Source: Xanthomonas campestris pv. campestris str. ATCC 33913
GTDB lineage: Bacteria > Pseudomonadota > Gammaproteobacteria > Xanthomonadales > Xanthomonadaceae
Length of the DNA: 32,000 nucleotides
Reading direction: 5' to 3'
Assembly: GCF_000007145.1 (NCBI RefSeq)
Contig: NC_003902.1
Location: forward strand, 2,426,497 to 2,458,496
Shown here: in pieces, positions 9,627 to 23,945 of the stretch
How the letters are laid out: each line of letters opens with the position of its first letter
Position numbering within the stretch: the first letter of the stretch is position 1
Notes under the pieces: generated by a model
Seen by the model: only the letters and a program-made list of their open reading frames with translations
Told to the model about the DNA's origin: nothing
The model's database searches: none
Made by a program: the position numbers and the translations under genes

Positions 9627-9711
9627 TTCGCTGGTGTCGTCCTTGTGGACCACACCCCGCCCCCCGGTTCCCCTCCGGGGCCCGGGTCAAGGGGTAGGGG
9701 ATAGGGGCTTC

Positions 9712-9879
9712 ATGGACACACACGCACTCGCACTGCTCAGCGCCTCCGCGCTGACCGTTGGCTTCGGGCTAGTCCGCCTCGCCGGCTGGGTGCGTGATCG
9801 CAAGCATGCCGCGATGGTCGCGCAAATTGAGCAAGCCGCGCTGGTCGCAATCGCATATCGCGAGGTGCGACGTGGCTGA
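9712..9879 (+). CDS. Small hydrophobic phage protein (55 aa), coupled to Rep
   Basis: The ATG at 9712 follows a G-rich RBS region. There is a TM-like segment ([22 protein letters not shown]). The stop TGA at 9877-9879 overlaps a candidate Rep GTG start at 9872 (GTGGCTGA). Confidence 0.45.
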
Positions 9880-10912
9880 CGGCACCTGCTCGTTCTGCGG
9901 TGAACCCACCGTCTACTTTTTCCCCGGTGGCCTCTGCGTTTCTTGTACGTCGAAGAACGCACGCATCCGCATGCAGGAACAGCCCACGCAATCGCGTGAG
10001 CTATCCGCGTTTGATGCATCTGTGGGCGTCATGCAGGCCGCTACGCGCCGCACTGAAATTGCCGCAGAGAAGATCCAAAAGAACAAGCGTGTGGTCGGCA
10101 CAAGCGTGCGTGAGTTCGACGCTGCCCATCCCATCGCATTGACCCCAGAGGGCCAGCGCGCAGCGCTGGCCCTTGGGCTTGTCCATTACAAAACAAGTGA
10201 CACGCGGGCCTCTACAACCGGCACCGTGACCATCGAAATTGACCCGCTACAAGCGCGGGCGCAACGGCTGCGCAAGTCCGTGATTACCGGAGCACGTCTG
10301 CATGACCAGGAAGCGAAAAAAGGCTCCTTCCGTGGTGCGTGGTATTTCCTCACGCTCACCTACCGTGATGGAAGCGACAGCAGCCCTCGTGACGTTAGCG
10401 AACTATTTAAACGCATGCGCGGCCACTTCAATCGCCTTAAATCTGGGCGCGCACGGTGGAACCGTGAAAGCTTTCGTTACGTATGGGTCGGAGAGCTCAC
10501 CCAACGATTCCGACCGCACTACCACGTGATGTTGTGGGTGCCTCAGGGCATGTTTTTTGGCAAGGTCGATCAACGCGGATGGTGGCCCCATGGCAGCAGC
10601 CAAATCGAGAAGGCCCGCAACTGCGTCGGCTATCTCGCCAAATACGCAAGCAAGTTCACCGCCATTACAGCTGCTGCTTTTCCCAAGGGATTTCGCACAC
10701 ACGGCTGCGGTGGACTCAACACCGAATCCAAGCGCGAATTGCGCTGGTGGAAAGCACCCAAAGACGCGCGTGAAGCTCTCGGCGGGGAAGCGGATATCCG
10801 CAAAGCAAAGGGCGGATGGTTCGACAGGCTTACCGGAGAGTTCTGGCCGTCTCCGTGGAAAGTCACATTCATTTTCGGCCGGACATTCGCCTGGAAGGTA
10901 GTCCAACTATGA
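9794..10912 (+). CDS. Rolling-circle replication initiator (gene II / phage CRI-type Rep)
   Basis: It has a HUH-type motif ([11 protein letters not shown]) and a catalytic Tyr motif ([10 protein letters not shown]). There is an N-terminal four-Cys zinc ribbon (CSFCG...CVSC). The true start may be the GTG at 9872, coupled to the upstream ORF, rather than the ATG at 9794. Confidence 0.8.
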
Positions 10913-11205
10913 AAGTGCAGATCATGAGTTCCGCTGTCGCTGTTCGTTCGTTCCCCGCGCGCGAGGGTAAGCCCGCGACGCATTTCCGTGAGCAGACCGC
11001 CGCTGTGCTGCGTGAGGGCGATTTCCCACTGCCGTTCACCATCGGTCTGGACGAGGATCAACCGCCGTATGGCGAGGGCTTCTACATCATCGATCCCAAG
11101 TCGTTGCAGAACAATAAATTCGGCGGTCTCGAGTTCGGCCGTCGCATTCGTCTGATTCCGGACCTCACTGCGAAGCTGCAACAGCAGCCCGCAAAGGTCG
11201 GGTGA
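10909..11205 (+). CDS. ssDNA-binding protein (gene V-like, 98 aa)
   Basis: The ATG at 10909 overlaps the Rep stop (ATGA). The position directly after Rep and the size match inovirus gV. Confidence 0.6.
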
Positions 11206-11208
11206 TTC

Positions 11209-11460
11209 ATGGCGATGTGCGTAGCCCTGCAAGTGGATGGCACGTTGGTGCCCACCGGCCAATCGGTCGGCGAGTGCAGCGGCTACGTGCTCGTCAGTGG
11301 TAGCGAATACAGCGTGTATGCGCTGGTGCAAGAAGCGTTCGCAATGCCCAGCCAGGAGGACGCCGTAGCGTGGTCCACCGGCTGCTGTGGCCTGGTGATC
11401 GTGTGGTTCGTCCTGGGGCGCCTTGCCGGCAGCGTCGCGGGCATGTTCAACGACCGGTAA
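11209..11460 (+). CDS. Hypothetical small phage protein with a C-terminal TM (83 aa)
   Basis: The ORF starts 3 nt after the gV-like stop. It has a hydrophobic C-terminus (CCGLVIVWFVLGRLAGSVAG). It sits where minor coat or morphogenesis genes are expected. Confidence 0.45.
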   Translation: MAMCVALQVDGTLVPTGQSVGECSGYVLVSGSEYSVYALVQEAFAMPSQEDAVAWSTGCCGLVIVWFVLGRLAGSVAGMFNDR

Positions 11461-11487
11461 ATCAATCAATCAAATAGGAGAGACAAC

Positions 11488-11616
11488 ATGGGTGACATTC
11501 TGACTGGCGTGAGCGGTGCTGAAGCTGCTACCGCGATGATCGCAGCGGCCGCAATCATTGCCTTGGTGGGCTTCACCAAGTGGGGTGCCAAGAAGGTTGC
11601 AAGCTTCTTCGGCTAA
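11488..11616 (+). CDS. Major coat protein (gene VIII-like, 42 aa). It falls below the ORF-track size cutoff.
   Basis: A strong RBS (AGGAGAGACAAC) precedes the ATG. The translation is MGDILTGVSGAEAATAMIAAAAIIALVGFTKWGAKKVASFFG. It has an acidic/neutral N-terminus, a hydrophobic core and a basic C-terminus, which is the classic inovirus coat layout. Confidence 0.8.
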   Translation: MGDILTGVSGAEAATAMIAAAAIIALVGFTKWGAKKVASFFG

Positions 11617-11674
11617 TGGTGGTGAGGGCAGGGCGGCGCTTCGGTGTCGCCCTCTCTCTTTCTGGGGTGGGGCG

Positions 11675-11749
11675 ATGATTATTTTGTTGTTCTGTGGATT
11701 CATGGGCGCGCTGTGCGGTTGGGCAGGCGTCAAGGGGTTGGACGCGTGA
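11675..11749 (+). CDS. Possible 24-aa hydrophobic minor coat protein (gVII/gIX-like)
   Basis: The ATG at 11675 follows GGGGTGGGG. The translation is [24 protein letters not shown]. The stop TGA overlaps the GTG start of the next gene (GTGA, 11746-11749). Confidence 0.35.
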
Positions 11750-12804
11750 TTCGCGTTTCGTTGGCAATGCTGATTCTTTTAGCGCTCACGTTCTCTCCTA
11801 TCGTGCATGCTACGTGCGTGCAGACTGAGCCATCAACGTCTGCAAATAACGGTTCGTGGGCCTGTAGCGATCAGGGAGAGGCATTCGCGAAGGCGTCTTC
11901 CATGGGTGTGCCTGCTGATCTTTCGGTGTGTCGTATGAAATCCATCCGTGCGGTGTCTTCTGGTCCTGGCGTTTTCTCGCAGCGCATGACCTATCCCGGC
12001 GACACATGCGGGATCGGGTATGACCTCGATATTGGCACCGGCAATGCCACGTATCCGGACACTGCTACCTGTGCAAAGCGACCGTCCCAAAGCGGCTGGA
12101 CTAATCCGACAGCACCCACGCCATCTGACGTTTGCAACGATGGCTGCTACTACACGTATGCCGTCGATGCTGGTGGCCCCAAGGGCTACACCTATGTGCC
12201 TAGTGGCGCCACGTGCACTACGGATGATGCAGCGCCTCCTATCGATGACGGTGGTGATGGCGATGATGATGGTGGTGGAGACGGTGGCGGCGATGGTGGT
12301 GGAGACGGTGGCGGCGATGGCGGTGGAGACGGCGGTGGAGACGGCGGTGGAGACGGCGGTGGAGATGGTGGTGGAGACGGCGGTGGAGATGGTGACGGCG
12401 GTGGTGATGGCGATGGCGATGGTGACGGTGATGGCGACGGCGACGGTGATGGCGATGGTGATGGTGATGGCGGAACGCTTCCCGGCGACGGTGATGGCGA
12501 GGAAGGCGGCGAGGGCGCACCCATGTCTGAGCTCTACAAGAAAAGTGGCAAGACTGTTGAGTCTGTGCTGAGCAAATTCAATACGCAGGTGCGCGGCACG
12601 CCCATGGTGGCCGGTATCGGCGATTTCATGAAAGTACCCTCCGGCGGATCGTGTCCTGTGTTCTCGCTGGGTGCGTCGAAGTGGTGGGACGCCATGACGA
12701 TCAATTTTCACTGTGGCGGCGATTTCCTGGCGTTTTTGCGCGCGGCTGGCTGGGTGATTCTCGCCATTGCTGCGTACGCCGCAATTCGCATTGCTGTGAC
12801 CTGA
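11746..12804 (+). CDS. Adsorption/minor coat protein (gene III-like) with an acidic Gly/Asp repeat linker
   Basis: The GTG at 11746 gives the signal peptide (M)[21 protein letters not shown]|TC. There is a Cys-rich N-domain, then (GGGD)x10 and (GD)n linkers, and a C-terminal membrane anchor ([18 protein letters not shown]). The ORF track shows the frame open from 11644. Confidence 0.75.
12244..12474 (+). repeat. In-frame tandem 12-nt (GGxGGxGGxGAy) and 6-nt (GGyGAy) repeats inside the gIII-like gene
   Basis: I read this directly. It encodes [12 protein letters not shown](GGGD)n...(GD)n. Confidence 0.9.
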
Positions 12805-12814
12805 GGGCGACGCT

Positions 12815-13135
12815 ATGCAAGCAGGTTGGTTCAACGATTTGACCGCGTGGCTGTGGCGTGCGGTCAAGATGGTGTGGCAGGCGATTGTCGATTTTGTGGG
12901 CGACTTGTTTGTGATGTGGCTGGAACAGTCGCTGTCGGCAATTCTCTATGTGCTGACGTTGCTGCCCATGCCCGACTTCATGAAGGGGCAGAGCATTGGC
13001 GGCATGCTCGGTAATGCGGGTAGCACCATCTTGTGGTTTGCCGATGTATTCATGATTGGTCCGGCGCTGGTGATGATCGGCGCGGCCATGATTTTTTTTC
13101 TCCTTCGCCGCGTGCTGACGCTCGGGATTTGGTGA
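12815..13135 (+). CDS. Minor coat protein (gene VI-like, 106 aa, multi-TM)
   Basis: It lies between the gIII-like and Zot-like genes. It is hydrophobic, and its stop is 1 nt before the zot ATG. Confidence 0.6.
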   Translation: MQAGWFNDLTAWLWRAVKMVWQAIVDFVGDLFVMWLEQSLSAILYVLTLLPMPDFMKGQSIGGMLGNAGSTILWFADVFMIGPALVMIGAAMIFFLLRRVLTLGIW

Positions 13136-13136
13136 C

Positions 13137-14459
13137 ATGCTCGTATTCAATGAAGGTGTGCCGCGTGCCGGCAAGAGTTACGACGCGGTAAAGAATCACA
13201 TTCTTCCGGCGCTCAAAAAGGGGCGTCGTGTGTTTGCGCGATTGAATGGGTTGCGCTTTGACCGCATCGCCAAGCACCTGGGCATGGCGGAGAATGATGT
13301 TCAGCACTTGCTTGTGCTGGTGGACACCAAGGACGTGTCGAAGTTGTTTGCGTGCACGCAGGACGAGTCGGGCAAGTGGTGTATCCCGGACGAGTTCAAA
13401 GACGCATTGGTTGTGATCGATGAGGTGCATGAGTTCTACGTCAACGAGCGCAAGCCGCTCGCGCCGGCCGTCGAGAATTTTTGGGCGCTGCTTGGCCAGA
13501 ACGGCGGCGATGCCGTGATCATGACGCAATGGATCAACCGCTTGCACTCGGCGGTCAAGGCGCGCATCGAGAAGAAAAACACGTTCCAGAAGCTCACCGC
13601 TATCGGCATGAAGGGCCGCTATCGCGTGACGTATTTCCACACGACCTCACCGGGCAAGTTTGAGAAGGTCGGCGGTCAAACGCTCAAGTACGACCCGGCC
13701 ATTTTTCCGCTCTATGACGGCTATGCGCCTGGTGCCGAGAACACCGAGGTTTACGAGGAGGGCGGTAAAAACGTCTGGGCCGCGATGGCTGTGCGCGCTG
13801 CCATCTTCCTCACACTCGGCGGGGTCGGCATCTACTTCTTCATGCACTATTTCACCAAGGATCGCGCCGATCCCAACAAGCCTATGGCATCTGCCAGCCA
13901 GACCACCAAACCCACGCACGTTGGCGCGGGGTTTGCTAACGGTGCGCCGAGTGTGCCGATTCAGCCGCCTCCGCCTGATCCGCTCGCAGACCTCACGCAA
14001 GAGCAGCGCTATGTGGCTCAGCTTGCCGACAAGGGCCGCATTCGGCTCTCCGCGCGGGCGCGCGTAGGTGATCAGGACCGTGCGTGGATTCAGTGGATTG
14101 ACGCGAGCAACAACGTCGTGGAGGAGTTGGATCTGTCGCAGTTGCGCGCCCTGGGTTACAGCGTCAGCGTCGTCACGTATGGCGTGCGTCTTTCGGCCGG
14201 CAAGCACATCATGGTGGCCACCGCGTGGCCCTGGACCGCGCCCATTCGTGAGAAGGACGCACGGCTTTACAACATGGCCCCAGACGGGAGCGGCGGCGCT
14301 GCTGGCGTTGCGACCGCAGGGAGTGACGGCGGCGGCGCTGACCGCGACCAGGTGCGCGGCGGCGTGATCGAGTACGGACCGCGCACCCAAGGCACGTTCC
14401 CGGACAACAAGGGTTACAGTTCAAGCACCAGCACGCCGGCCACCACGTTGCAGATGTAG
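13137..14459 (+). CDS. zot: Zot / gene I-like phage assembly ATPase (440 aa)
   Basis: An N-terminal Walker A motif (FNEGVPRAGKSY) and a Walker B-like motif (LVVIDEVHEF) are present. There is a central TM (AAMAVRAAIFLTLGGVGIYFFMHYF), then a ~190-aa C-terminal domain. Confidence 0.85.
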   Translation: MLVFNEGVPRAGKSYDAVKNHILPALKKGRRVFARLNGLRFDRIAKHLGMAENDVQHLLVLVDTKDVSKLFACTQDESGKWCIPDEFKDALVVIDEVHEFYVNERKPLAPAVENFWALLGQNGGDAVIMTQWINRLHSAVKARIEKKNTFQKLTAIGMKGRYRVTYFHTTSPGKFEKVGGQTLKYDPAIFPLYDGYAPGAENTEVYEEGGKNVWAAMAVRAAIFLTLGGVGIYFFMHYFTKDRADPNKPMASASQTTKPTHVGAGFANGAPSVPIQPPPPDPLADLTQEQRYVAQLADKGRIRLSARARVGDQDRAWIQWIDASNNVVEELDLSQLRALGYSVSVVTYGVRLSAGKHIMVATAWPWTAPIREKDARLYNMAPDGSGGAAGVATAGSDGGGADRDQVRGGVIEYGPRTQGTFPDNKGYSSSTSTPATTLQM

Positions 14460-14462
14460 TTT

Positions 14463-14476
14463 CGTGACGCGTCACG
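14463..14476. promoter_or_regulatory. Perfect 14-bp palindrome CGTGACGCGTCACG between the convergent zot and 102-aa genes
   Basis: I read this directly. It is mirrored at 16070-16083. It could be a bidirectional stop signal or a protein-binding site. Confidence 0.3.
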
Positions 14477-14478
14477 AT

Positions 14479-14787
14479 TTAGCACGGATCGTTTGGCAAT
14501 TCTTGCCATCCATTAGATAGCCGACGGAAGCGCTTGTGTTGAATGCATCGTTCGTTCGATTCCAGCGCTCGTAGTTGCAGCGTCGGCAGTTCTGCAGGTT
14601 GGGTGCGGGGCCTGTACAGCGGTTGCGGGGCGACTGGTAGCGCTGCACTGACGCTGCGCATGGTGAAGTAGCCCAGGCATAGCGCCACCACGCCGGCAAG
14701 CGCTGCGGTCATCAGCTGGCCTACGAAAATGCCTAAGGCGATTTCCCACCAAAGCCCATCATGGTTGTTCTGCGGTCTGTAGCTCAT
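14479..14787 (-). CDS. Phage membrane protein with a C-terminal two-Cys motif (102 aa), unknown function
   Basis: The ATG at 14787 follows a GGGGG RBS. There is a hydrophobic N-terminal segment (WWEIALGIFVGQLMTAALAGVVALCLGYF). The C-terminus is ERCIQHKRFRRLSNGWQELPNDPC. An identical copy is at 15759-16067 and a paralog is at 8368-8808. Confidence 0.65.
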   Translation of the reverse strand: MSYRPQNNHDGLWWEIALGIFVGQLMTAALAGVVALCLGYFTMRSVSAALPVAPQPLYRPRTQPAELPTLQLRALESNERCIQHKRFRRLSNGWQELPNDPC

Positions 14788-14824
14788 ACGGCCCCCTGTG
14801 ACGATGAGCGGGCATTGTAGGGGT

Positions 14825-14843
14825 GTAGGGGCATAGCCCCTAC
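14825..14843. promoter_or_regulatory. Hairpin GTAGGGGC-ATA-GCCCCTAC preceded by the direct repeat TGTAGGGG TGTAGGGG
   Basis: I read this directly. It lies between the DUF3653-like stop and the 102-aa gene start. It is mirrored at 15703-15721 with a different loop. Confidence 0.4.
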
Positions 14844-14853
14844 GGATAACGCC

Positions 14854-15180
14854 TCACACGCGGCCTTTGCGCCTCCGCGCCGGTGCTGATGATAATCCTG
14901 CGCATTTCGCCGCTGGACCCGTATCCACCCGTTGCAAACCCGCCTTTTTCTCCTGCCGTTTTCTGAACTGGTCACGGAGATAGATCACGCCGGCCGGCCG
15001 TTTGGGCGGTGTCTTGGCGCGGCCCTCGGCCATCATGGTTGACCACTCACGGGCTATCGTGCAGGTCAGCGATAGCCACTGTAGATCCGATGGTGCGATG
15101 GATCTGCCTTCGGGCGTGATGAGGTGGCCACCCTGGAACGAAAAACCGGCCCAAGGGCCGGTGAGTGTTTTATTTCGCAT
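14854..15180 (-). CDS. DUF3653-like phage protein, variant 1 (108 aa)
   Basis: The ATG at 15180 has GGAG upstream. The translation is MRNKTLTGPWAGFSFQGGHLITPEGRSIAPSDLQWLSLTCTIAREW... with a basic C-terminal tail. It is homologous to, but diverged from, ORF 15354-15692. The family name is from memory. Confidence 0.6.
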   Translation of the reverse strand: MRNKTLTGPWAGFSFQGGHLITPEGRSIAPSDLQWLSLTCTIAREWSTMMAEGRAKTPPKRPAGVIYLRDQFRKRQEKKAGLQRVDTGPAAKCAGLSSAPARRRKGRV

Positions 15181-15252
15181 CCGCCAAACTCCATGTGGCG
15201 GGCCATGGTCGCCGCCGCGGCGTGATCGCAGCAGCAAGCCATGCCAGTAGCC

Positions 15253-15280
15253 TCCTGACATAATATACATTATGCGAAAT
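15253..15280 (-). other. Complete dif-like XerCD site B. The minus strand reads ATTTCGCATAA-TGTATA-TTATGTCAGGA.
   Basis: The layout is 11-6-11, with the same central TGTATA and inner arm bases as E. coli dif (GGTGCGCATAA-TGTATA-TTATGTTAAAT). It sits at the junction of the two prophages. Confidence 0.75.
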
Positions 15281-15353
15281 GGACTGTATTGACGCTCCTG
15301 TGCCTCGTGGCGGTCTATCAATGGTTGTCCCTCCACAGGAAGCGGACCGGACA

Positions 15354-15692
15354 ATGCAGCTAGACACCTACGATCACGTAGACCTGACCGGCCCCTGGGC
15401 CGGTTTTGGTTTTCAGGGCTATCGATTCTTCACCCCGGAAGGCCGCGAAGTGCGGCCGGAAGAAATGCGGTGGTGGTCGCTGACATGCACCATCGCGCGC
15501 GAGTGGGCGCTGATGATGGCCGAAGAGCGGGAGCGTGTGTGGCATCCCCGCCCGGCCGAAGTCATCTACCTGCGGGACGTGATCCGGCGCAGGCGTGAAA
15601 GGCGGTTATCAGTGGTGGATGGCGCGGGGTCCGCCGACAGGGCGCGAGTGATCCGAGCAACGCGGGGGCCAAGAGATCCACGGCGCGGGTGA
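15354..15692 (+). CDS. DUF3653-like phage protein, variant 2 (112 aa)
   Basis: The ATG at 15354 has an AGGAAG RBS. The translation is MQLDTYDHVDLTGPWAGFGFQGYRFFTPEGREVRPEEMRWWSLTCTIAREW... The ORF-track start at 15279 lies inside site B and is less likely. Confidence 0.6.
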   Translation: MQLDTYDHVDLTGPWAGFGFQGYRFFTPEGREVRPEEMRWWSLTCTIAREWALMMAEERERVWHPRPAEVIYLRDVIRRRRERRLSVVDGAGSADRARVIRATRGPRDPRRG

Positions 15693-15758
15693 GGCGTTAT
15701 CCGTAGGGGCTCTGCCCCTACACCCCTACAATGCTCGCTCATCGTCACAGGGGGCCGT

Positions 15759-16067
15759 ATGAGCTACAGACCGCAGAACAACCATGATGGGCTTTGGTGG
15801 GAAATCGCCTTAGGCATTTTCGTAGGCCAGCTGATGACCGCAGCGCTTGCCGGCGTGGTGGCGCTATGCCTGGGCTACTTCACCATGCGCAGCGTCAGTG
15901 CAGCGCTACCAGTCGCCCCGCAACCGCTGTACAGGCCCCGCACCCAACCTGCAGAACTGCCGACGCTGCAACTACGAGCGCTGGAATCGAACGAACGATG
16001 CATTCAACACAAGCGCTTCCGTCGGCTATCTAATGGATGGCAAGAATTGCCAAACGATCCGTGCTAA
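15759..16067 (+). CDS. Phage membrane protein with a C-terminal two-Cys motif (copy 2)
   Basis: The translation is identical to 14479-14787. Confidence 0.65.
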   Translation: MSYRPQNNHDGLWWEIALGIFVGQLMTAALAGVVALCLGYFTMRSVSAALPVAPQPLYRPRTQPAELPTLQLRALESNERCIQHKRFRRLSNGWQELPNDPC

Positions 16068-16086
16068 ATCGTGACGCGTCACGAAA

Positions 16087-17409
16087 CTACATCTGCAACG
16101 TGGTGGCCGGCGTGCTGGTGCTTGAACTGTAACCCTTGTTGTCCGGGAACGTGCCTTGGGTGCGCGGTCCGTACTCGATCACGCCGCCGCGCACCTGGTC
16201 GCGGTCAGCGCCGCCGCCGTCACTCCCTGCGGTCGCAACGCCAGCAGCGCCGCCGCTCCCGTCTGGGGCCATGTTGTAAAGCCGTGCGTCCTTCTCACGA
16301 ATGGGCGCGGTCCAGGGCCACGCGGTGGCCACCATGATGTGCTTGCCGGCCGAAAGACGCACGCCATACGTGACGACGCTGACGCTGTAACCCAGGGCGC
16401 GCAACTGCGACAGATCCAACTCCTCCACGACGTTGTTGCTCGCGTCAATCCACTGAATCCACGCACGGTCCTGATCACCTACGCGCGCCCGCGCGGAGAG
16501 CCGAATGCGGCCCTTGTCGGCAAGCTGAGCCACATAGCGCTGCTCTTGCGTGAGGTCTGCGAGCGGATCAGGCGGAGGCGGCTGAATCGGCACACTCGGC
16601 GCACCGTTAGCAAACCCCGCGCCAACGTGCGTGGGTTTGGTGGTCTGGCTGGCAGATGCCATAGGCTTGTTGGGATCGGCGCGATCCTTGGTGAAATAGT
16701 GCATGAAGAAGTAGATGCCGACCCCGCCGAGTGTGAGGAAGATGGCAGCGCGCACAGCCATCGCGGCCCAGACGTTTTTACCGCCCTCCTCGTAAACCTC
16801 GGTGTTCTCGGCACCAGGCGCATAGCCGTCATAGAGCGGAAAAATGGCCGGGTCGTACTTGAGCGTTTGACCGCCGACCTTCTCAAACTTGCCCGGTGAG
16901 GTCGTGTGGAAATACGTCACGCGATAGCGGCCCTTCATGCCGATAGCGGTGAGCTTCTGGAACGTGTTTTTCTTCTCGATGCGCGCCTTGACCGCCGAGT
17001 GCAAGCGGTTGATCCATTGCGTCATGATCACGGCATCGCCGCCGTTCTGGCCAAGCAGCGCCCAAAAATTCTCGACGGCCGGCGCGAGCGGCTTGCGCTC
17101 GTTGACGTAGAACTCATGCACCTCATCGATCACAACCAATGCGTCTTTGAACTCGTCCGGGATACACCACTTGCCCGACTCGTCCTGCGTGCACGCAAAC
17201 AACTTCGACACGTCCTTGGTGTCCACCAGCACAAGCAAGTGCTGAACATCATTCTCCGCCATGCCCAGGTGCTTGGCGATGCGGTCAAAGCGCAACCCAT
17301 TCAATCGCGCAAACACACGACGCCCCTTTTTGAGCGCCGGAAGAATGTGATTCTTTACCGCGTCGTAACTCTTGCCGGCACGCGGCACACCTTCATTGAA
17401 TACGAGCAT
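16087..17409 (-). CDS. zot: Zot / gene I-like assembly ATPase (copy 2)
   Basis: The translation is identical to 13137-14459. Confidence 0.85.
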   Translation of the reverse strand: MLVFNEGVPRAGKSYDAVKNHILPALKKGRRVFARLNGLRFDRIAKHLGMAENDVQHLLVLVDTKDVSKLFACTQDESGKWCIPDEFKDALVVIDEVHEFYVNERKPLAPAVENFWALLGQNGGDAVIMTQWINRLHSAVKARIEKKNTFQKLTAIGMKGRYRVTYFHTTSPGKFEKVGGQTLKYDPAIFPLYDGYAPGAENTEVYEEGGKNVWAAMAVRAAIFLTLGGVGIYFFMHYFTKDRADPNKPMASASQTTKPTHVGAGFANGAPSVPIQPPPPDPLADLTQEQRYVAQLADKGRIRLSARARVGDQDRAWIQWIDASNNVVEELDLSQLRALGYSVSVVTYGVRLSAGKHIMVATAWPWTAPIREKDARLYNMAPDGSGGAAGVATAGSDGGGADRDQVRGGVIEYGPRTQGTFPDNKGYSSSTSTPATTLQM

Positions 17410-17410
17410 G

Positions 17411-17731
17411 TCACCAAATCCCGAGCGTCAGCACGCGGCGAAGGAGAAAAAAAATCATGGCCGCGCCGATCATCACCAGCGCCGGACCAATCATGAATAC
17501 ATCGGCAAACCACAAGATGGTGCTACCCGCATTACCGAGCATGCCGCCAATGCTCTGCCCCTTCATGAAGTCGGGCATGGGCAGCAACGTCAGCACATAG
17601 AGAATTGCCGACAGCGACTGTTCCAGCCACATCACAAACAAGTCGCCCACAAAATCGACAATCGCCTGCCACACCATCTTGACCGCACGCCACAGCCACG
17701 CGGTCAAATCGTTGAACCAACCTGCTTGCAT
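17411..17731 (-). CDS. Gene VI-like minor coat protein (copy 2)
   Basis: The translation is identical to 12815-13135. Confidence 0.6.
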   Translation of the reverse strand: MQAGWFNDLTAWLWRAVKMVWQAIVDFVGDLFVMWLEQSLSAILYVLTLLPMPDFMKGQSIGGMLGNAGSTILWFADVFMIGPALVMIGAAMIFFLLRRVLTLGIW

Positions 17732-17741
17732 AGCGTCGCCC

Positions 17742-18800
17742 TCAGGTCACAGCAATGCGAATTGCGGCGTACGCAGCAATGGCGAGAATCACCCAGCCAG
17801 CCGCGCGCAAAAACGCCAGGAAATCGCCGCCACAGTGAAAATTGATCGTCATGGCGTCCCACCACTTCGACGCACCCAGCGAGAACACAGGACACGATCC
17901 GCCGGAGGGTACTTTCATGAAATCGCCGATACCGGCCACCATGGGCGTGCCGCGCACCTGCGTATTGAATTTGCTCAGCACAGACTCAACAGTCTTGCCA
18001 CTTTTCTTGTAGAGCTCAGACATGGGTGCGCCCTCGCCGCCTTCCTCGCCATCACCGTCGCCGGGAAGCGTTCCGCCATCACCATCACCATCGCCATCAC
18101 CGTCGCCGTCGCCATCACCGTCACCATCGCCATCGCCATCACCACCGCCGTCACCATCTCCACCGCCGTCTCCACCACCATCTCCACCGCCGTCTCCACC
18201 GCCGTCTCCACCGCCGTCTCCACCGCCATCGCCGCCACCGTCTCCACCACCATCGCCGCCACCGTCTCCACCACCATCATCATCGCCATCACCACCGTCA
18301 TCGATAGGAGGCGCTGCATCATCCGTAGTGCACGTGGCGCCACTAGGCACATAGGTGTAGCCCTTGGGGCCACCAGCATCGACGGCATACGTGTAGTAGC
18401 AGCCATCGTTGCAAACGTCAGATGGCGTGGGTGCTGTCGGATTAGTCCAGCCGCTTTGGGACGGTCGCTTTGCACAGGTAGCAGTGTCCGGATACGTGGC
18501 ATTGCCGGTGCCAATATCGAGGTCATACCCGATCCCGCATGTGTCGCCGGGATAGGTCATGCGCTGCGAGAAAACGCCAGGACCAGAAGACACCGCACGG
18601 ATGGATTTCATACGACACACCGAAAGATCAGCAGGCACACCCATGGAAGACGCCTTCGCGAATGCCTCTCCCTGATCGCTACAGGCCCACGAACCGTTAT
18701 TTGCAGACGTTGATGGCTCAGTCTGCACGCACGTAGCATGCACGATAGGAGAGAACGTGAGCGCTAAAAGAATCAGCATTGCCAACGAAACGCGAATCAC
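17742..18800 (-). CDS. Gene III-like adsorption protein (copy 2)
   Basis: The translation is identical to 11746-12804, including the repeat length. The GTG start is at 18800. Confidence 0.75.
18072..18302 (-). repeat. Gly/Asp-coding tandem repeats inside gIII-like copy 2
   Basis: It is the mirror of 12244-12474. Confidence 0.9.
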
Positions 18801-18871
18801 GCGTCCAACCCCTTGACGCCTGCCCAACCGCACAGCGCGCCCATGAATCCACAGAACAACAAAATAATCAT
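18797..18871 (-). CDS. Possible 24-aa hydrophobic minor coat protein (copy 2)
   Basis: It is the mirror of 11675-11749. Confidence 0.35.
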
Positions 18872-18929
18872 CGCCCCACCCCAGAAAGAGAGAGGGCGAC
18901 ACCGAAGCGCCGCCCTGCCCTCACCACCA

Positions 18930-19058
18930 TTAGCCGAAGAAGCTTGCAACCTTCTTGGCACCCCACTTGGTGAAGCCCACCAAGGCAATGATTGCGGCCG
19001 CTGCGATCATCGCGGTAGCAGCTTCAGCACCGCTCACGCCAGTCAGAATGTCACCCAT
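18930..19058 (-). CDS. Major coat protein (gene VIII-like, 42 aa, copy 2)
   Basis: It is the mirror of 11488-11616. CAT at 19056-19058 confirms the start. Confidence 0.8.
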   Translation of the reverse strand: MGDILTGVSGAEAATAMIAAAAIIALVGFTKWGAKKVASFFG

Positions 19059-19085
19059 GTTGTCTCTCCTATTTGATTGATTGAT

Positions 19086-19337
19086 TTACCGGTCGTTGAA
19101 CATGCCCGCGACGCTGCCGGCAAGGCGCCCCAGGACGAACCACACGATCACCAGGCCACAGCAGCCGGTGGACCACGCTACGGCGTCCTCCTGGCTGGGC
19201 ATTGCGAACGCTTCTTGCACCAGCGCATACACGCTGTATTCGCTACCACTGACGAGCACGTAGCCGCTGCACTCGCCGACCGATTGGCCGGTGGGCACCA
19301 ACGTGCCATCCACTTGCAGGGCTACGCACATCGCCAT
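19086..19337 (-). CDS. Hypothetical small phage protein (83 aa, copy 2)
   Basis: The translation is identical to 11209-11460. Confidence 0.45.
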   Translation of the reverse strand: MAMCVALQVDGTLVPTGQSVGECSGYVLVSGSEYSVYALVQEAFAMPSQEDAVAWSTGCCGLVIVWFVLGRLAGSVAGMFNDR

Positions 19338-19340
19338 GAA

Positions 19341-19637
19341 TCACCCGACCTTTGCGGGCTGCTGTTGCAGCTTCGCAGTGAGGTCCGGAATCAGACGAAT
19401 GCGACGGCCGAACTCGAGACCGCCGAATTTATTGTTCTGCAACGACTTGGGATCGATGATGTAGAAGCCCTCGCCATACGGCGGTTGATCCTCGTCCAGA
19501 CCGATGGTGAACGGCAGTGGGAAATCGCCCTCACGCAGCACAGCGGCGGTCTGCTCACGGAAATGCGTCGCGGGCTTACCCTCGCGCGCGGGGAACGAAC
19601 GAACAGCGACAGCGGAACTCATGATCTGCACTTTCAT
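19341..19637 (-). CDS. ssDNA-binding protein (gene V-like, copy 2)
   Basis: It is the mirror of 10909-11205. Confidence 0.6.
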
Positions 19638-20752
19638 AGTTGGACTACCTTCCAGGCGAATGTCCGGCCGAAAATGAATGTGACTTTCCACGGAGACGGC
19701 CAGAACTCTCCGGTAAGCCTGTCGAACCATCCGCCCTTTGCTTTGCGGATATCCGCTTCCCCGCCGAGAGCTTCACGCGCGTCTTTGGGTGCTTTCCACC
19801 AGCGCAATTCGCGCTTGGATTCGGTGTTGAGTCCACCGCAGCCGTGTGTGCGAAATCCCTTGGGAAAAGCAGCAGCTGTAATGGCGGTGAACTTGCTTGC
19901 GTATTTGGCGAGATAGCCGACGCAGTTGCGGGCCTTCTCGATTTGGCTGCTGCCATGGGGCCACCATCCGCGTTGATCGACCTTGCCAAAAAACATGCCC
20001 TGAGGCACCCACAACATCACGTGGTAGTGCGGTCGGAATCGTTGGGTGAGCTCTCCGACCCATACGTAACGAAAGCTTTCACGGTTCCACCGTGCGCGCC
20101 CAGATTTAAGGCGATTGAAGTGGCCGCGCATGCGTTTAAATAGTTCGCTAACGTCACGAGGGCTGCTGTCGCTTCCATCACGGTAGGTGAGCGTGAGGAA
20201 ATACCACGCACCACGGAAGGAGCCTTTTTTCGCTTCCTGGTCATGCAGACGTGCTCCGGTAATCACGGACTTGCGCAGCCGTTGCGCCCGCGCTTGTAGC
20301 GGGTCAATTTCGATGGTCACGGTGCCGGTTGTAGAGGCCCGCGTGTCACTTGTTTTGTAATGGACAAGCCCAAGGGCCAGCGCTGCGCGCTGGCCCTCAG
20401 CGGTCAACGCGATCGGATGGGCAGCGTCGAACTCACGCACGCTTGTGCCGACCACACGCTTGTTCTTTTGGATCTTCTCTGCGGCAATTTCAGTGCGGCG
20501 CGTAGCGGCCTGCATGACGCCGACAGATGCATCAAACGCCGATAGCTCACGCGATTGCGTGGGCTGTTCCTGCATGCGGATGCGTGCATTCTTCGACGTG
20601 CAAGAAACGCAGAGGCCACCGGGGAAAAAGTAGACGGTGGTGTCACCGCAGAACGAGCATGTGCCGTCAGCCACGTAGCACCTCGCGATATGCGATTGCG
20701 ACCAGCGCGGCTTGCTCAATTTGCGCGACCATCGCGGCGTGCTTGCGATCAC
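19634..20752 (-). CDS. Rolling-circle replication initiator (copy 2, N-terminal variant)
   Basis: It matches 9794-10912 except for substitutions in the first ~118 codons (for example D26Y, EP37-38DT, P118A). An alternative GTG start is at 20674. Confidence 0.8.
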
Positions 20753-20834
20753 GCACCCAGCAGGCGAGACGGACTAACCCGAAGCCAACGGTCAGCGCGG
20801 AGGCGCTGAGCAGTGCGAGTGCGTGTGTGTCCAT
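20667..20834 (-). CDS. Small hydrophobic phage protein (55 aa, copy 2)
   Basis: It is the mirror of 9712-9879 with two substitutions (G25C, R53L). Confidence 0.45.
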
Positions 20835-20918
20835 GAAGCCCCTATCCCCTGCCCCTTGACGCGGACCCCGGAGGGGAGCCGGGGGCGCGGTGTCATACGG
20901 CGTAGGACACGAGGCGCA

Positions 20919-20947
20919 TGTAACATGAAGCAGGACACTTCTGTCAA
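20919..20947 (-). promoter_or_regulatory. Putative promoter of the Rep/structural operon of prophage 2 (TTGACA-N17-GTTACA on the minus strand)
   Basis: It has the same geometry as 9598-9626. It lies 13 bp from the divergent repressor-2 GTG. Confidence 0.4.
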
Positions 20948-20959
20948 ACGGTATATGAC

Positions 20960-21424
20960 GTGGACACCATAAATAAATTGCTTGACACAGCGCGAAAAGC
21001 ATGCTCGCGCGACTCAGACAACAGCGTTGCGCTGTCGCTTGGCGTGTCGCGGAATTCGGTTTCCGTGTGGCGCAAAGGCGGAAAAATCACCGACGCACAT
21101 CTGATGGCGCTTATCGACCTGGCACAGGCTGACCCTGCGCTAGCAGTGAAAGTGCGAGAGGAAGAAGCCGGATCGGCCGTCGAACGCAAGGCGTGGAGTG
21201 CGCTGTGGGACAGACTGTCCCCGGTCACTACGGTGATCGGGGGCCTGGTCCTGGCAATCGGCATGATGCCGGCGACGGGTCGGACGAAAGGCCTTGATAT
21301 TCAACAGCTTGCACGGGTTGACGGCGCATATTCTGTATATTATGTCATAATAACGCCTGCAGGAGCATCAGTTCAAACCATTGCGTACGACAACCCAGTC
21401 AAAGCCGTCAGATGGCCGCAGTAA
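20960..21424 (+). CDS. Putative phage immunity repressor 2 (HTH N-terminus, hydrophobic C-terminal segment). The 3' end reads through att site C.
   Basis: It has a GTG start and an HTH-like segment (SDNSVALSLGVSRNSVSVWRKGG). ERKAWSALWDRLS is followed by the hydrophobic helix VTTVIGGLVLAIGMM. Codons GAYSVYYVII are encoded by site C. The last 52 nt overlap the convergent TraX-like gene. Confidence 0.6.
   Translation: MDTINKLLDTARKACSRDSDNSVALSLGVSRNSVSVWRKGGKITDAHLMALIDLAQADPALAVKVREEEAGSAVERKAWSALWDRLSPVTTVIGGLVLAIGMMPATGRTKGLDIQQLARVDGAYSVYYVIITPAGASVQTIAYDNPVKAVRWPQ
21323..21350 (+). other. XerCD-type hybrid att site C: GGCGCATATTC-TGTATA-TTATGTCATAA (phage arm + centre + dif XerD arm)
   Basis: I read this directly. 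The right 14 nt match the XerD side of site B (TGTATATTATGTCA). Confidence 0.7.
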
Positions 21425-22023
21425 TACATGTAGAACGCTCTACCCGTCCGCGGGATGGCCCATGACAGGTAAGCCAAACCTGCAACCGGCAGCGCAAGCA
21501 GCGGCCACAACGTCCGGTTCACCAAGCACAAGAGCACTAGCGGAATCACCAAGAGCACAACAACCGACACTGCCCTTGGCCATCGCCAGCCCGCTGGATT
21601 GCGCCAGAACAGCCAGGCACCGAGTACAACAGCCAGCCCGTTCCACCGATAGTCAACCAGGTAAGGTGCCGGCAACAGGCAGAACGCCAACACAATCCAT
21701 TTTCGTTCTTCGATCGCACGAATACAGACAGCTGCCAATGCGAAGGACAAGAGAATATTGAGCGGCAGTGCCCGATTGAATGCGATCGCCGCAATCGGTG
21801 TCGCAACGAGTCCCCACAGGAACAAACGCTTGATCAACTTGGCGACATCAGCACCCGGCTGCGCCAAATTGTAGGCAAACACCAGTGCGAACAATGGAAA
21901 TGCCACGCGGCCCAGTTCTGCAATGACCGGCATATAGCCCAGGTGCAAAATCTTCAAGGTGTGGTCGCCTGTCATAAACAGCAGCGCGAGCCACTTCACC
22001 AATTCACGGCCTCCGCTTGTCAT
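21373..22023 (-). CDS. TraX-family membrane protein
   Basis: A 216-aa polytopic membrane protein with an N-terminal LVKWLALLFMTGDH motif typical of the TraX family. The family is from memory. Confidence 0.55.
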   Translation of the reverse strand: MTSGGRELVKWLALLFMTGDHTLKILHLGYMPVIAELGRVAFPLFALVFAYNLAQPGADVAKLIKRLFLWGLVATPIAAIAFNRALPLNILLSFALAAVCIRAIEERKWIVLAFCLLPAPYLVDYRWNGLAVVLGAWLFWRNPAGWRWPRAVSVVVLLVIPLVLLCLVNRTLWPLLALPVAGLAYLSWAIPRTGRAFYMYYCGHLTALTGLSYAMV

Positions 22024-22151
22024 GCGATCCCTCCTTGTTCGACGACGGCTCGATGAGCTAATGCGGATTTACTGATCAATTTATCTAACTCTGGAGCTGC
22101 CAGCAGTTCTGCAGCACCGGCCACCAATCCCAGCCATTCTTTGCAGCCCTG

Positions 22152-23945
22152 CTATCTCACAGCCCCATTGTCTTCCTGCAACTCCCGCTTGAACGGCACA
22201 TCCGGTGGCGGCCTTGCGGTGGCTGGTTGATCGTTGAGATTCGGGTCGCTCAGGCCGCAGCCGCCGCCGAATTGCAGCAACGACACCACGCAGCTGATCT
22301 TGGTCGTGGTGCCGGGAATGGGAATTTCGATCTTCTTCAATCCGCGCCGCACCCATTCCTGCAGCAGCGTCTGGTTCGGCATCCAATACTTGTCCAGCGA
22401 CGTCGGCGTGTAACCGTACGGCGGCCGCTTGAGCCAGGTGCCGCCTTGCGCAATCTGGTCACGCGTCCAGGTGTCGGTATCGCTGCCCGGCGGGCCGCGA
22501 TCGCCAGCGCCATTGCCGGCCTCGCCACCGGCGGCAACCCGCACGCTGCCGTCGTTGTTGAACATGCCGTCGCGTTTGCCATCGGCACCGGTTGCCTGCC
22601 CGGGACGGTCGCGGGTCGATTTGCTCCAGTCGTCCGCGTTGGCCGCCACATCCCATCCGCCACTGCGATCAACCGGTTTCGGGCCGGCACCGCTGCTGGC
22701 CGCCGGCTTGCTGGATGCAGCGGCCGCTGACGCCGGTTTCGCAGATTGCGCAGCCGTCTGCTGGTTGGTCTGATTAGCGGCTGACGGCGCGCTGGAAGGT
22801 GCCGGCGCCGCAGGCGCTATGGGTACCGCCGCGTCCGAAGGCGTCTGCACGACTGTCGGTTGCGCCGGGGGTGTCTGCGCCGGCGTCGGCTGTGGCGCCG
22901 GGTCCGGCACGTTCGGCAGCTCCGCAGCACGCACCGCCAGCTCGGGCATGCGAACCGTGGGAACCAACTCACGTGCACGCACTGTGGGCGCGGTGACCCT
23001 AGCCTGTTCGGGCACGACGATCTCGCGCTCGCGCACGGTGGGTGCCGCGGCAGCGCGCACGGCAACGGCGGCAGTCGGTTGCTGCAGTTCGCGCACCTGT
23101 GGCCGCTCGGTAACCGTCTGGATCTCGCGCTGGCGTACCTGCGGTGCAGCCGGCTCGATCGGGCGTGGCGCCACAGTGATGGTGGGCGGTGGCGGGACGA
23201 CGAAATCCGTGGTCGGCACCGGTGTTTCAGTCACCTGCAGCGGCGATTCCAGCGTGACCTGCGGCACCTGCACACGGATCTGCGGGATATCGGGCGTACT
23301 GGGTTCCGCCGCCGCAGCCACAACAAGTTCGGGCGCGACGTCCGGCACGTCGGCTGCCGGCTCCACTGGCTCGGCCACTGTGGATGCGGTGCTTGCCGGC
23401 GACGCTGCTGCTGACGACGCGGCTGCCGCAGATGCCGCCGCTTGCTGAGCGCCAGATGCCGCTGTGGCTGGCGCAGCGTCCGCGGCCGGCTCGCCTTCGC
23501 CACCGCCCTGATCTGCGGCGCCCTCGCCTACATAGGTCAGGCGCACCCGCGCCTCGTCGCCCTGTTTGGTGTCGTCCGGGGCCCAGCGCACGCTGACCAC
23601 CCACAGCAACAAGGCGATAAATCCCAGGTGGATCAGCGCACTGCCGAGTACAGCCCCCCAGTGCAGCGGGCGCTCGTCGCGCGGGCGCGGGTCCCAGTGT
23701 TGCCACCACAGGCTGCGGAATGCCTGGAACGGACTCAGTCTTCCCGCCATGCCGTCTCGAGGTCGCGGCGCAGGACGCGCCAACAGCGCGTCCGTCAGTT
23801 GGTCGTCATCAAACCGTGCTGGCGTACCCAGCCGCCCCCGCATCCAGATGCCCCAGCCATAGGGCAACCCGGTCCGCCGATCCAGAATGAGCTTGCCCGG
23901 CATGCGCGCCAACAGCGCCTGCAGGAGATCGGCAGCGGTTGTCAC
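22152..23945 (-). CDS. Pro/Ala-rich repetitive transmembrane protein (597 aa), unknown function
   Basis: It has a TM helix (WGAVLGSALIHLGFIALLLWVV) and a long A/P/T/V-rich region with repeated xVRxRE[IL] units. The C-terminal domain is globular-looking. It starts 13 bp downstream of the nfuA stop on the same strand. Confidence 0.6.
   Translation of the reverse strand: MTTAADLLQALLARMPGKLILDRRTGLPYGWGIWMRGRLGTPARFDDDQLTDALLARPAPRPRDGMAGRLSPFQAFRSLWWQHWDPRPRDERPLHWGAVLGSALIHLGFIALLLWVVSVRWAPDDTKQGDEARVRLTYVGEGAADQGGGEGEPAADAAPATAASGAQQAAASAAAASSAAASPASTASTVAEPVEPAADVPDVAPELVVAAAAEPSTPDIPQIRVQVPQVTLESPLQVTETPVPTTDFVVPPPPTITVAPRPIEPAAPQVRQREIQTVTERPQVRELQQPTAAVAVRAAAAPTVREREIVVPEQARVTAPTVRARELVPTVRMPELAVRAAELPNVPDPAPQPTPAQTPPAQPTVVQTPSDAAVPIAPAAPAPSSAPSAANQTNQQTAAQSAKPASAAAASSKPAASSGAGPKPVDRSGGWDVAANADDWSKSTRDRPGQATGADGKRDGMFNNDGSVRVAAGGEAGNGAGDRGPPGSDTDTWTRDQIAQGGTWLKRPPYGYTPTSLDKYWMPNQTLLQEWVRRGLKKIEIPIPGTTTKISCVVSLLQFGGGCGLSDPNLNDQPATARPPPDVPFKRELQEDNGAVR

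Follow-up and report, generated by a model that had tools for sequence, protein, structure and literature searches.

The 32,000-nt chromosomal stretch from Xanthomonas campestris pv. campestris ATCC 33913 analyzed here (the window) contains two filamentous prophages and, at their inner junction, a complete dif-like XerCD site (site B, positions 15253-15280). Comparison with other X. campestris chromosomes and with phage genomes indicated that site B is explained by two Xer integrations through opposite arms of dif, followed by a homologous-recombination flip between the resulting inverted prophages. We assign a probability of about 0.88 to this explanation. These comparisons identify homologous recombination, and not Xer-mediated inversion, as the cause of the reversal of site B, since Xer sites do not bound the inverted segment, the phage genomes are not intact and the two prophage bodies are reciprocal recombinants. 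Sequence comparison showed the ancestral site, the composition of both phages, the recombinant pattern of alleles and the natural occurrence of the two isomers, while XerCD catalysis, dependence of the flip on RecA and its reversibility are what we infer. No new recombination mechanism is revealed by the locus.

Recombination sites and prophage modules

At 15253-15280, the plus strand reads TCCTGACATAA-TATACA-TTATGCGAAAT and the minus strand ATTTCGCATAA-TGTATA-TTATGTCAGGA. Site B has the 28-bp anatomy of dif (11-bp XerC arm, 6-bp center, 11-bp XerD arm) and is accompanied by two outer sites. Phages that carry the XerC arm or the XerD arm in their attachment site (attP) are referred to below as C-type and D-type, respectively.

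15253-15280, minus strand: site B; phiLf-derived XerC arm (15270-15280), center (15264-15269) and XerD arm of the D-type phage (15253-15263)
9200-9227, plus strand: site A, ATTTCGCATAA-TGTATA-GAAGGTGCCGT; chromosomal XerC arm and degenerate phiLf arm; attL of the XerC-arm-type phage phiLf
21323-21350, plus strand: site C, GGCGCATATTC-TGTATA-TTATGTCATAA; degenerate phage arm and chromosomal XerD arm; attR of the XerD-arm-type phage

In scans with arm patterns, site B was the sole two-armed Xer site of the window, as the initial annotation, made from the sequence alone, had proposed. Its inversion relative to sites A and C was likewise confirmed, both outer sites being one-armed and on the plus strand. 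The pattern CATAA-N6-TTATG, with at most one mismatch, matched the window only at 15259-15274, and the only other XerD-arm-like site was found at 21334-21350. The 15-mer TATACATTATGCGAA occurred exactly twice, at 15264-15278 on the plus strand and at 9202-9216 on the minus strand, against a chance expectation of approximately 0.01 matches and with two copies in none of 100 shuffles. As the initial annotation had stated, it is the attP/dif core of Cf1c, phiLf and XacF1, and is given as such in the XacF1 paper (PMC4076744) and by Yeh et al. (bioRxiv 10.1101/2023.12.30.573655). Also as proposed, site B proved to be composite, its XerD arm running on from the DNA of the left prophage and its XerC arm from that of the right prophage. 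Because the outer and inner sites are mutually inverted, Xer recombination would be unable to excise a prophage from the present arrangement; this had been claimed for prophage 1 and applies to either prophage.

For comparison with phage records, the region was cut into modules, in which X denotes the shared phage body.

8368-8808, minus strand: chromosomal left-flank gene (146 aa); the chromosome stops at 9199, directly before site A
9217-9660, plus strand: A-adjacent module of phiLf, with the N-terminal part of the DUF3693 helix-turn-helix (HTH) regulator gene; directly after attP in U38235 and MN263053
9661-14862, plus strand: left inverted-repeat arm, phage genes gII to gI/zot; phiLf alleles at 9668-10147, perfect core at 10148-14810, D-type alleles at 14811, 14834 and 14858
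14863-15252, plus strand: B-left module of the XerD-arm-type (Cf2-like) phage; joins the TraX-side prophage contiguously in single lysogens L013, L010 and L016
14854-15180, minus strand: DUF3653 open reading frame (ORF) of 108 aa in B-left (Pfam)
15281-15683, plus strand: B-right module of phiLf; 100% identical to MN263053 and U38235, where it lies directly before attP and the A-adjacent module
15354-15692, plus strand: DUF3653 gene ORF112 in B-right (Pfam)
15684-20885, minus strand: right inverted-repeat arm; phiLf alleles beside the spacer, perfect core at 15736-20398, D-type alleles at the gII end
20886-21322, plus strand: C-adjacent module of the XerD-arm-type phage; contiguous with X and the reverse complement of B-left in single lysogens
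21373-22023, minus strand: chromosomal right-flank gene of the TraX family (Pfam TraX, E = 2e-69); adjoins dif in prophage-free genomes

The arms (9661-14862 and 15684-20885) are inverted copies. Direct comparison showed 23 mismatches in 5202 nt, the 100% reported by a repeat search being a result of rounding. Twenty mismatches lie at 9668-10147 and three at 14811, 14834 and 14858, which leaves a perfect core of 4,663 nt (10148-14810). The 821-nt spacer between the arms consists of B-left, site B and B-right, with B-left and B-right only weakly alike. No recombinase family was found in the gene content of either prophage. The att junctions are dif-like with crossover in the central region, as in integrative mobile elements exploiting Xer (IMEX), and the attL, attR and empty-site sets agree.

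The ancestral site and the two phages

Exact-protein look-ups of three window genes yielded about 30 X. campestris loci (some designated below by L numbers), which were mapped with the window modules; the empty site was located through the look-up of the left-flank protein. The following states were found.

Empty site (CP066921.1, JAHBQN010000001.1, JAHBQP010000001.1, CP066923.1): window left flank, ATTTCGCATAA-TGTATA-TTATGTCAGAA, window right flank (TraX)
Single XerC-arm lysogen (CP155951.1, CM002632.1): left flank, XerC arm-center-GAGGGTCTGTC, X on the plus strand, reverse complement of B-right, ACTTCGCATAA-center-TTATGTCAGAA, right flank
Single XerD-arm lysogen (CP155978.1, CP067005.1, CP124745.1, CP142085.2, fSU1 record): ATTTCGCATAA-center-TTATGTCAGGA, reverse complement of B-left, X on the minus strand, C-adjacent module, GGCGCATATTC-center-TTATGTCA(G/T)AA, right flank
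State S1, multiple lysogen with every site direct (CP155990.1, CP077958.1, CP066972.1, CP124534.1, CP156004.1, CP142009.1): unflipped module order, ungapped
Flipped, state S2 (window, CP155931.1, 8004 (CP000050.1), CP155999.1): inner site inverted, B-left and B-right exchanged

In four prophage-free genomes, dif (ATTTCGCATAA-TGTATA-TTATGTCAGAA) lies exactly between the window's own two flanks. The 146-aa gene and TraX are there approximately 440 nt apart with only dif between them (L149, L150, L154, L156), and the left flank up to 9199 is identical to that of the empty dif, while the right flank matches from 21351 onward. This comparison with the empty dif locus of related strains, which the initial annotation had proposed, defined the ancestral site and its orientation, with the XerC arm on the left.

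Authentic phiLf, represented by U38235 (cloned replicative-form (RF) DNA) and MN263053, has the module order X, reverse complement of B-right (100% identity), ATTTCGCATAA-TGTATA-GAAGGTGCCGT, A-adjacent module (99.8% identity to both records) and again X, its body being 98.8% identical to that of the window. The same pairing of B-right and A-adjacent modules occurs in phiXv2, at 84 and 81% identity. By the module order of RF-derived phiLf, the A-adjacent end naturally pairs with B-right, a module found across site B in the window. The phiLf attP has the XerC arm and center of dif without change, together with an unrelated right arm. This attP was thus found in a free circle, at a junction other than the one the initial annotation had predicted for prophage 1 (TCCTGACATAA-N6-GAAGGTGCCGT). 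Differing episomal junctions had been named there as a test of the prediction, and those of phiLf do differ.

The second, Cf2-like phage consists of B-left, X and the C-adjacent module. Reconstruction from the empty site together with attL and attR would make its attP GGCGCATATTC-TGTATA-TTATGTCAGGA, in which the XerD arm and center are conserved and the left arm matches the XerC arm in register at 3 of 11 positions. The same single lysogens and empty sites argue against the junction predicted earlier for prophage 2 (ATTTCGCATAA-N6-GAATATGCGCC), and neither of the two earlier predicted attP sites had a match in IMG/VR. Compared with the C-type single lysogens, the D-type phage enters dif in the opposite sense to phiLf: C-type singles (L022, L024) and D-type singles (L013, L010, L016, L151, fSU1) are oppositely oriented, with attL and attR as expected. 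The fSU1 "phage" record is a prophage with chromosomal flanks. Each prophage of the window is a recombinant of the two phages.

Cf2 (NC_073752) resembles the D-type phage in its annotated attP, TGCGTATAGTC-TGTATA-TTATGTCAAAG, which has the XerD arm and center and no XerC arm in register, and in its module order (zot-side module, attP, DUF3693 module). Nucleotide identity is 72% to B-left and 66-67% to the C-adjacent module, for which Cf2, at 67%, was the sole match in the phage databases. The D-type phage is distinct from Cf2 in having a phiLf-like body, and the XerD-arm-type phage of ATCC 33913 and 8004 is without a phage-database record. Integration of Cf2 is reportedly XerD-dependent, judging by the title of a 2020 paper by Yeh.

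When moved outward by 2 nt, the D-type left arm GGCGCATATTC agrees with the XerC arm at 7 of 11 positions (ACGGCGCATAT followed by TC and TGTATA, window 21312-21333), and the left arm of the Cf2 attP has a 7/11 match at the identical shift. The D-type attP could consist of a XerC arm with an 8-nt central region; the shifted match could equally reflect coding constraint, as the DUF3693 ORF crosses this arm.

Many inner XerC arms of S1 genomes show the phage variant ACTT/AGTT, which confirms that this arm is phage-derived, and site A retains the chromosomal ATTT. One of these genomes (CP156004.1) has a canonical phiLf prophage in which the A-adjacent and B-right modules of the window are contiguous at 100% identity. 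Among the flipped loci, CP155931.1 is identical to the window over 20,339 nt (0 mismatches). Three further records in the flipped state (L009, L011, L021) were not counted as evidence for that state, since N gaps flank their spacer.

Origin of the inverted inner site

The 23 mismatches between the arms were typed against three C-type and four D-type references. At the gII end (9668-10147), the left arm was phiLf-type and the right arm D-type. This assignment held against both phiLf references at all positions but one; the more distant C-type phage of L022 has the D-type allele at many of these positions and is non-discriminating there, and at two positions the left allele is present in three of the four D-type references. 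At the spacer-proximal positions 14811, 14834 and 14858, the left arm was D-type and the right arm phiLf-type against every reference. This swap of alleles between the two ends of the arms indicates a single reciprocal crossover in the 4,663-nt perfect core. All that distinguishes flipped from unflipped genomes is the stretch separating the inverted phage bodies, which places the ends of the inversion inside the repeats. These ends do not coincide with inverted recombinase sites; in the window they fall between 10147 and 14811, and in 8004 inside a 674-nt stretch or at its edge.

In 8004, the arms are identical only over these 674 nt, which lie beside the spacer. Counted from the spacer, its left arm follows the D-type reference over 723 nt and becomes phiLf2-type at nt 724, and its right arm is phiLf-type as far as nt 51 and D-type beginning at nt 311. 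The flip in 8004 arose independently, as a second event, and involved another pair of phages.

In the proposed course of events, an ancestral dif (ATTTCGCATAA-TGTATA-TTATGTCAGAA, XerC arm on the left) between 9199 and 21351 would have received two phages with complementary one-armed attP sites, in either order and by crossover in the central TGTATA. The phiLf attP would contribute XerC arm, center and degenerate right arm, and the Cf2-like attP degenerate left arm, center and XerD arm. The good arm is placed alike in both genomes, directly after the zot-side DUF3653 module, as the XerC arm ATTTCGCATAA-TGTATA in phiLf and as the XerD arm TCCTGACATAA-TATACA in the other phage. This identical position, combined with the opposite arm type, accounts for the opposite, head-to-head entry of the two phages; as the XerC and XerD arms are near mirror images, a small difference in the arm suffices to reverse the sense of integration. 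The product, S1, would have three direct sites, with site A made of the chromosomal XerC arm and a degenerate arm, and site C of a degenerate arm and the chromosomal XerD arm. Its inner site, formed by the phiLf XerC arm and the XerD arm of the D-type phage, would again be a complete dif, with the chromosomal half-sites displaced outward. A reciprocal, presumably RecA-dependent, homologous crossover in the 4,663-nt repeat would then invert the inner site together with both end modules and 52 nt from each arm, thereby yielding S2, in which site B is reversed, both prophages are chimeric and Xer excision is blocked until the segment flips back.

The initial annotation had favored a different course, in which XerCD synapsed two sites in antiparallel fashion and thereby inverted the whole of prophage 2, and had named reverse-sense integration and inversion by homologous recombination as alternatives. 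Both alternatives are retained as parts of the present explanation, while Xer-mediated inversion now appears very improbable. It is in keeping with the inverse orientation of sites A and B and with the palindromic inner arm bases and four of the six central bases of site B. However, the allele switch between 10147 and 14811 puts the ends of the segment inside the homologous arms and not at Xer sites, and the switch in 8004 falls inside the identical 674 nt or at their border. Xer inversion would moreover leave intact phage genomes, which were not seen: the expected phage of B-right, X and C-adjacent module never occurs alone, single lysogens pairing B-right with A-type and B-left with C-adjacent modules. 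In addition, all unflipped genomes have three direct sites, at which Xer would excise and not invert. An equally slight chance is given to the possibility that the window prophages are genuine phages (phiLf-UK on the left; B-right, X and C-adjacent module on the right) that integrated directly as they lie. A synthetic phiLf-UK, built from exactly the left prophage, does yield infectious, lysogenizing virions. However, that construct took in the 15-mer of site A, so that its phiLf-like attP (AATTCGCATAA-TGTATA-GAAGGTGCCGT) was made by the position of the cut, and its viability is therefore uninformative on the natural junction. Direct integration would also need a target with two XerC arms or two XerD arms, of which the empty locus has none, and the predicted junctions were not found in IMG/VR.

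Somewhat more probable, though still improbable, is an assembly artifact, in which the true state would be all-direct and the 821-nt spacer misoriented between long inverted repeats. Sanger reads and small inserts are both shorter than the perfect repeat of 4,663 nt, and the draft-like flipped records L009, L011 and L021 carry N gaps beside the spacer. Against this possibility, CP155931.1 has the same arrangement with 0 mismatches over 20 kb, the phiLf-UK record (derived from AE008922.1) shows the same contiguity of A-adjacent module, X and B-left, and 8004 and CP155999.1 are flipped with an identical stretch of just 674 nt, which is easily spanned. A repeat this short leaves no assembly ambiguity for the flip in 8004.

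Several points weigh against two integrations followed by a flip as the origin of the window's arrangement. Its orientation in ATCC 33913 is taken from deposited assemblies, Sanger or short-read assembly resolves a perfect inverted repeat of 4.66 kb only with difficulty, and CP155931.1 is possibly not an independent assembly. The identity of the arms over 4.66 kb itself requires gene conversion or earlier recombination between phages, and either order of the two integrations fits the data. The D-type attP was derived from attL, attR and the empty site, with the Cf2 homologue as support, and its free form (GGCGCATATTC-TGTATA-TTATGTCAGGA) had no match in IMG/VR, the Joint Genome Institute (JGI) metagenomes or the fetched loci.

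It is conceivable, though doubtful, that a head-to-head pair of C-arm and D-arm phages acts as a RecA-driven reversible switch and that cultures of ATCC 33913 and 8004 are mixtures of the two isomers. If so, one isomer would have both prophages excisable by Xer and the native dif polarity, and the other both prophages locked and dif reversed. The share of cells able to release phage would in that case depend on the flip, and regulatory and attP modules would be continually exchanged between the two phages, with phiLf-UK and phiLf2 as examples of the new viable chimeras.

The phiLf-UK record (NC_073754/MH206184), to which the left prophage shows 100% identity, was synthesized from ATCC 33913 (AE008922.1:2435698-2441774) according to Yeh et al. 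(bioRxiv 10.1101/2023.12.30.573655). The 12,151-bp phiLf-homologous block described in that study corresponds to 9200-21350 of the window. phiLf-UK and phiLf were reported there to differ mainly in ORF9/ORF112; by the module comparison, this difference is the exchange of B-left for B-right, and the phiLf-type ORF112 lies, 100% identical, across site B.

The records of phiLf-UK (NC_073754; Lophivirus LfUK) and phiLf2 (NC_073753; Lophivirus Lf2), which are GenBank and International Committee on Taxonomy of Viruses (ICTV) exemplars, were copied from the flipped loci of ATCC 33913 and 8004, respectively. This was seen by comparing window 9202-15264 with NC_073754 and NC_073753, together with 3565-9927 of L017. 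Since they were cut from flipped loci, both genomes are chimeric, each having the body and one end of one phage and the B-left end of another. The attP sequences in the records, AATTCGCATAA-TGTATA-GAAGGTGCCGT for phiLf-UK and TCTTCGCATAA-TGTATA-TTATGTCAGGA for phiLf2, are artificial, because the bordering 15-mer was included when the prophages were cut out. The two reference genomes can thus be corrected as chimeras.

Site B as the probable dif, related systems and neighboring features

Site B is identical to the ancestral empty-site dif at 27 of 28 positions, in reversed orientation, and its sister copies on a chromosome dimer are direct repeats in either orientation. On these grounds, site B is very probably still the working dif of the cell, and from the sequence comparison we infer that dimers are resolved there by XerCD. 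A prediction of site B as the dif of ATCC 33913 dates from 2009, when Carnoy and Roten (PMC2731167) listed TCCTGACATAATATACATTATGCGAAAT at 2441762, which is site B, for this strain, with the skew switch 257 bp from the site. GC skew was positive to the left of the locus and negative to its right, and GGGNAGGG, the FtsK-orienting polar sequence (KOPS), occurred five times on the plus strand to the left and three times on the minus strand to the right, which are small counts. GC skew and GGGNAGGG polarity thus converge on the locus and support a terminus location of site B. The 21-nt dif core is the common proteobacterial dif core: among the matches listed in a contig scan it recurred at generic proteobacterial dif sites, which says little on X. 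campestris. FtsK halts at XerCD-dif from either side in vitro (PMC2800217), so that inversion need not disable site B.

Integration of filamentous phages at Xanthomonas dif is already well known (PMC4076744; PMC2731167), and the reviewed Xer-exploiting classes CTX, VGJ, TLC and gonococcal genetic island (GGI) all keep the XerC arm (PMC5357621). The IMEX arrays of Vibrio cholerae (TLCphi-CTXphi-RS1; PMC5357621, Das et al. 2013) likewise consist of integrase-less filamentous elements that integrated serially at dif by XerCD, with hybrid att sites between them, and one element can supply a dif-like site for the next element and the host. However, those arrays are head-to-tail with the XerC arm kept, whereas in the window one partner has only the XerD arm, the pair is head-to-head and the complete inner site, made of nothing but phage halves, can undergo a homologous-recombination flip. 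The phiLf attP, with a XerC arm, a fully homologous center and a divergent XerD arm, has a TLCphi/GGI-like anatomy and, like those of Cf1c, XacF1 and phiXv2, includes the 15-mer core seen in the window. phiLf itself differs from the window, in which its genome is split, with the B-right end beyond site B on the other prophage.

Homologous recombination between long inverted repeats flips the intervening DNA, as in the isomers of plastid genomes and in prophage and rRNA-operon inversions across bacterial termini. The locus resembles these systems in that inverted copies recombine and both isomers occur in nature, and differs from them in that the segment is approximately 0.9 kb and carries dif, so that the flip changes dif polarity and prophage excisability. 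No account of head-to-head C-/D-type pairs at dif, of their dif flip by homologous recombination or of the flipped state of ATCC 33913 and 8004 was found in the literature accessible to search.

These comparisons settle the locus architecture of the black-rot reference strains ATCC 33913 and 8004, in which the likeliest dimer-resolving site is built entirely of phage-derived halves. They further indicate that opposite single-arm attP sites can give rise to head-to-head filamentous prophages whose long inverted repeats straddle dif, an arrangement outside the CTX, VGJ and TLC classes. Natural strains, among which dif occurs in both orientations, could readily serve to test the effect of its polarity in vivo.

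Two of the loci showed more complex arrangements. In L021 (HG764958.1, 2284-15864), a triple lysogen, the inverted segment appears to span the middle prophage and two sites, and the inversion appears to have arisen by recombination of the first and third phage bodies; 500 N lie in gaps beside the repeats. In L026 (CP012145.1, 8448-15588), a complete but inverted ATTTCGCATAA-TGTATA-TTATGTCAGAA lies 8 nt past a 680-nt zot-end remnant, with no B-left. The phiLf body runs in reverse, and another two-armed site, GATTCGCATAA-TGTATA-TTATGTCAGAA, adjoins the TraX flank. A flip and later deletions may have produced this odd arrangement.

The DUF3693 HTH regulator gene of the left prophage (9653 to 9099, minus strand; Pfam DUF3693, E = 7.5e-16) reads over site A into the chromosome, and a second DUF3693 regulator gene (20960-21424, plus strand) reads likewise over site C. 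Since the DUF3693 genes of both phages run through attP, integration replaces their last 26-35 residues by chromosome-encoded ones. A regulator gene passing through attP was likewise noted for ORF12 of XacF1 (PMC4076744). Whether the regulator ORF is open only over natural junctions was considered as a discriminator and rejected, as it is open in all four combinations, including the chimeric ones.

Within the phage body, gIII, encoding the minor coat protein, contains a Gly/Asp-rich repeat of approximately 290 nt with a 12-nt period (12220-12513 and 18034-18333), which is its main length-variable part; Yeh et al. (bioRxiv 10.1101/2023.12.30.573655) reported 19 extra residues at this repeat relative to the Taiwanese phiLf. 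Conservation between the otherwise diverged B-left and B-right modules is highest in a G+C-rich hairpin, AAAAACCGGCCCAAGGGCCGGT, with its counterpart (15139-15160 and 15389-15410). Its copies lie approximately 100 nt to either side of site B and may be a terminator or a phage cis element.

To the left of site A, contexts of L007, L008, L013, L015, L019 and L022 were compared with those of L014, L017 and L025. The left flank common to all strains is the last 634 nt only, beyond which some strains have a methyl-accepting chemotaxis gene and others, like the window, the 146-aa gene and cyclic glucan synthase; L010, L016, L151, L152 and L155 show further contexts. These differences indicate that large chromosomal rearrangements break right beside the dif/prophage locus. 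To the right of dif, G+C content is 0.57-0.58 at 21001-22500, over the TraX-family gene, compared with approximately 0.65 for the chromosome. This gene may be an old insertion at dif, and its retention beside dif in prophage-free strains marks it as resident.

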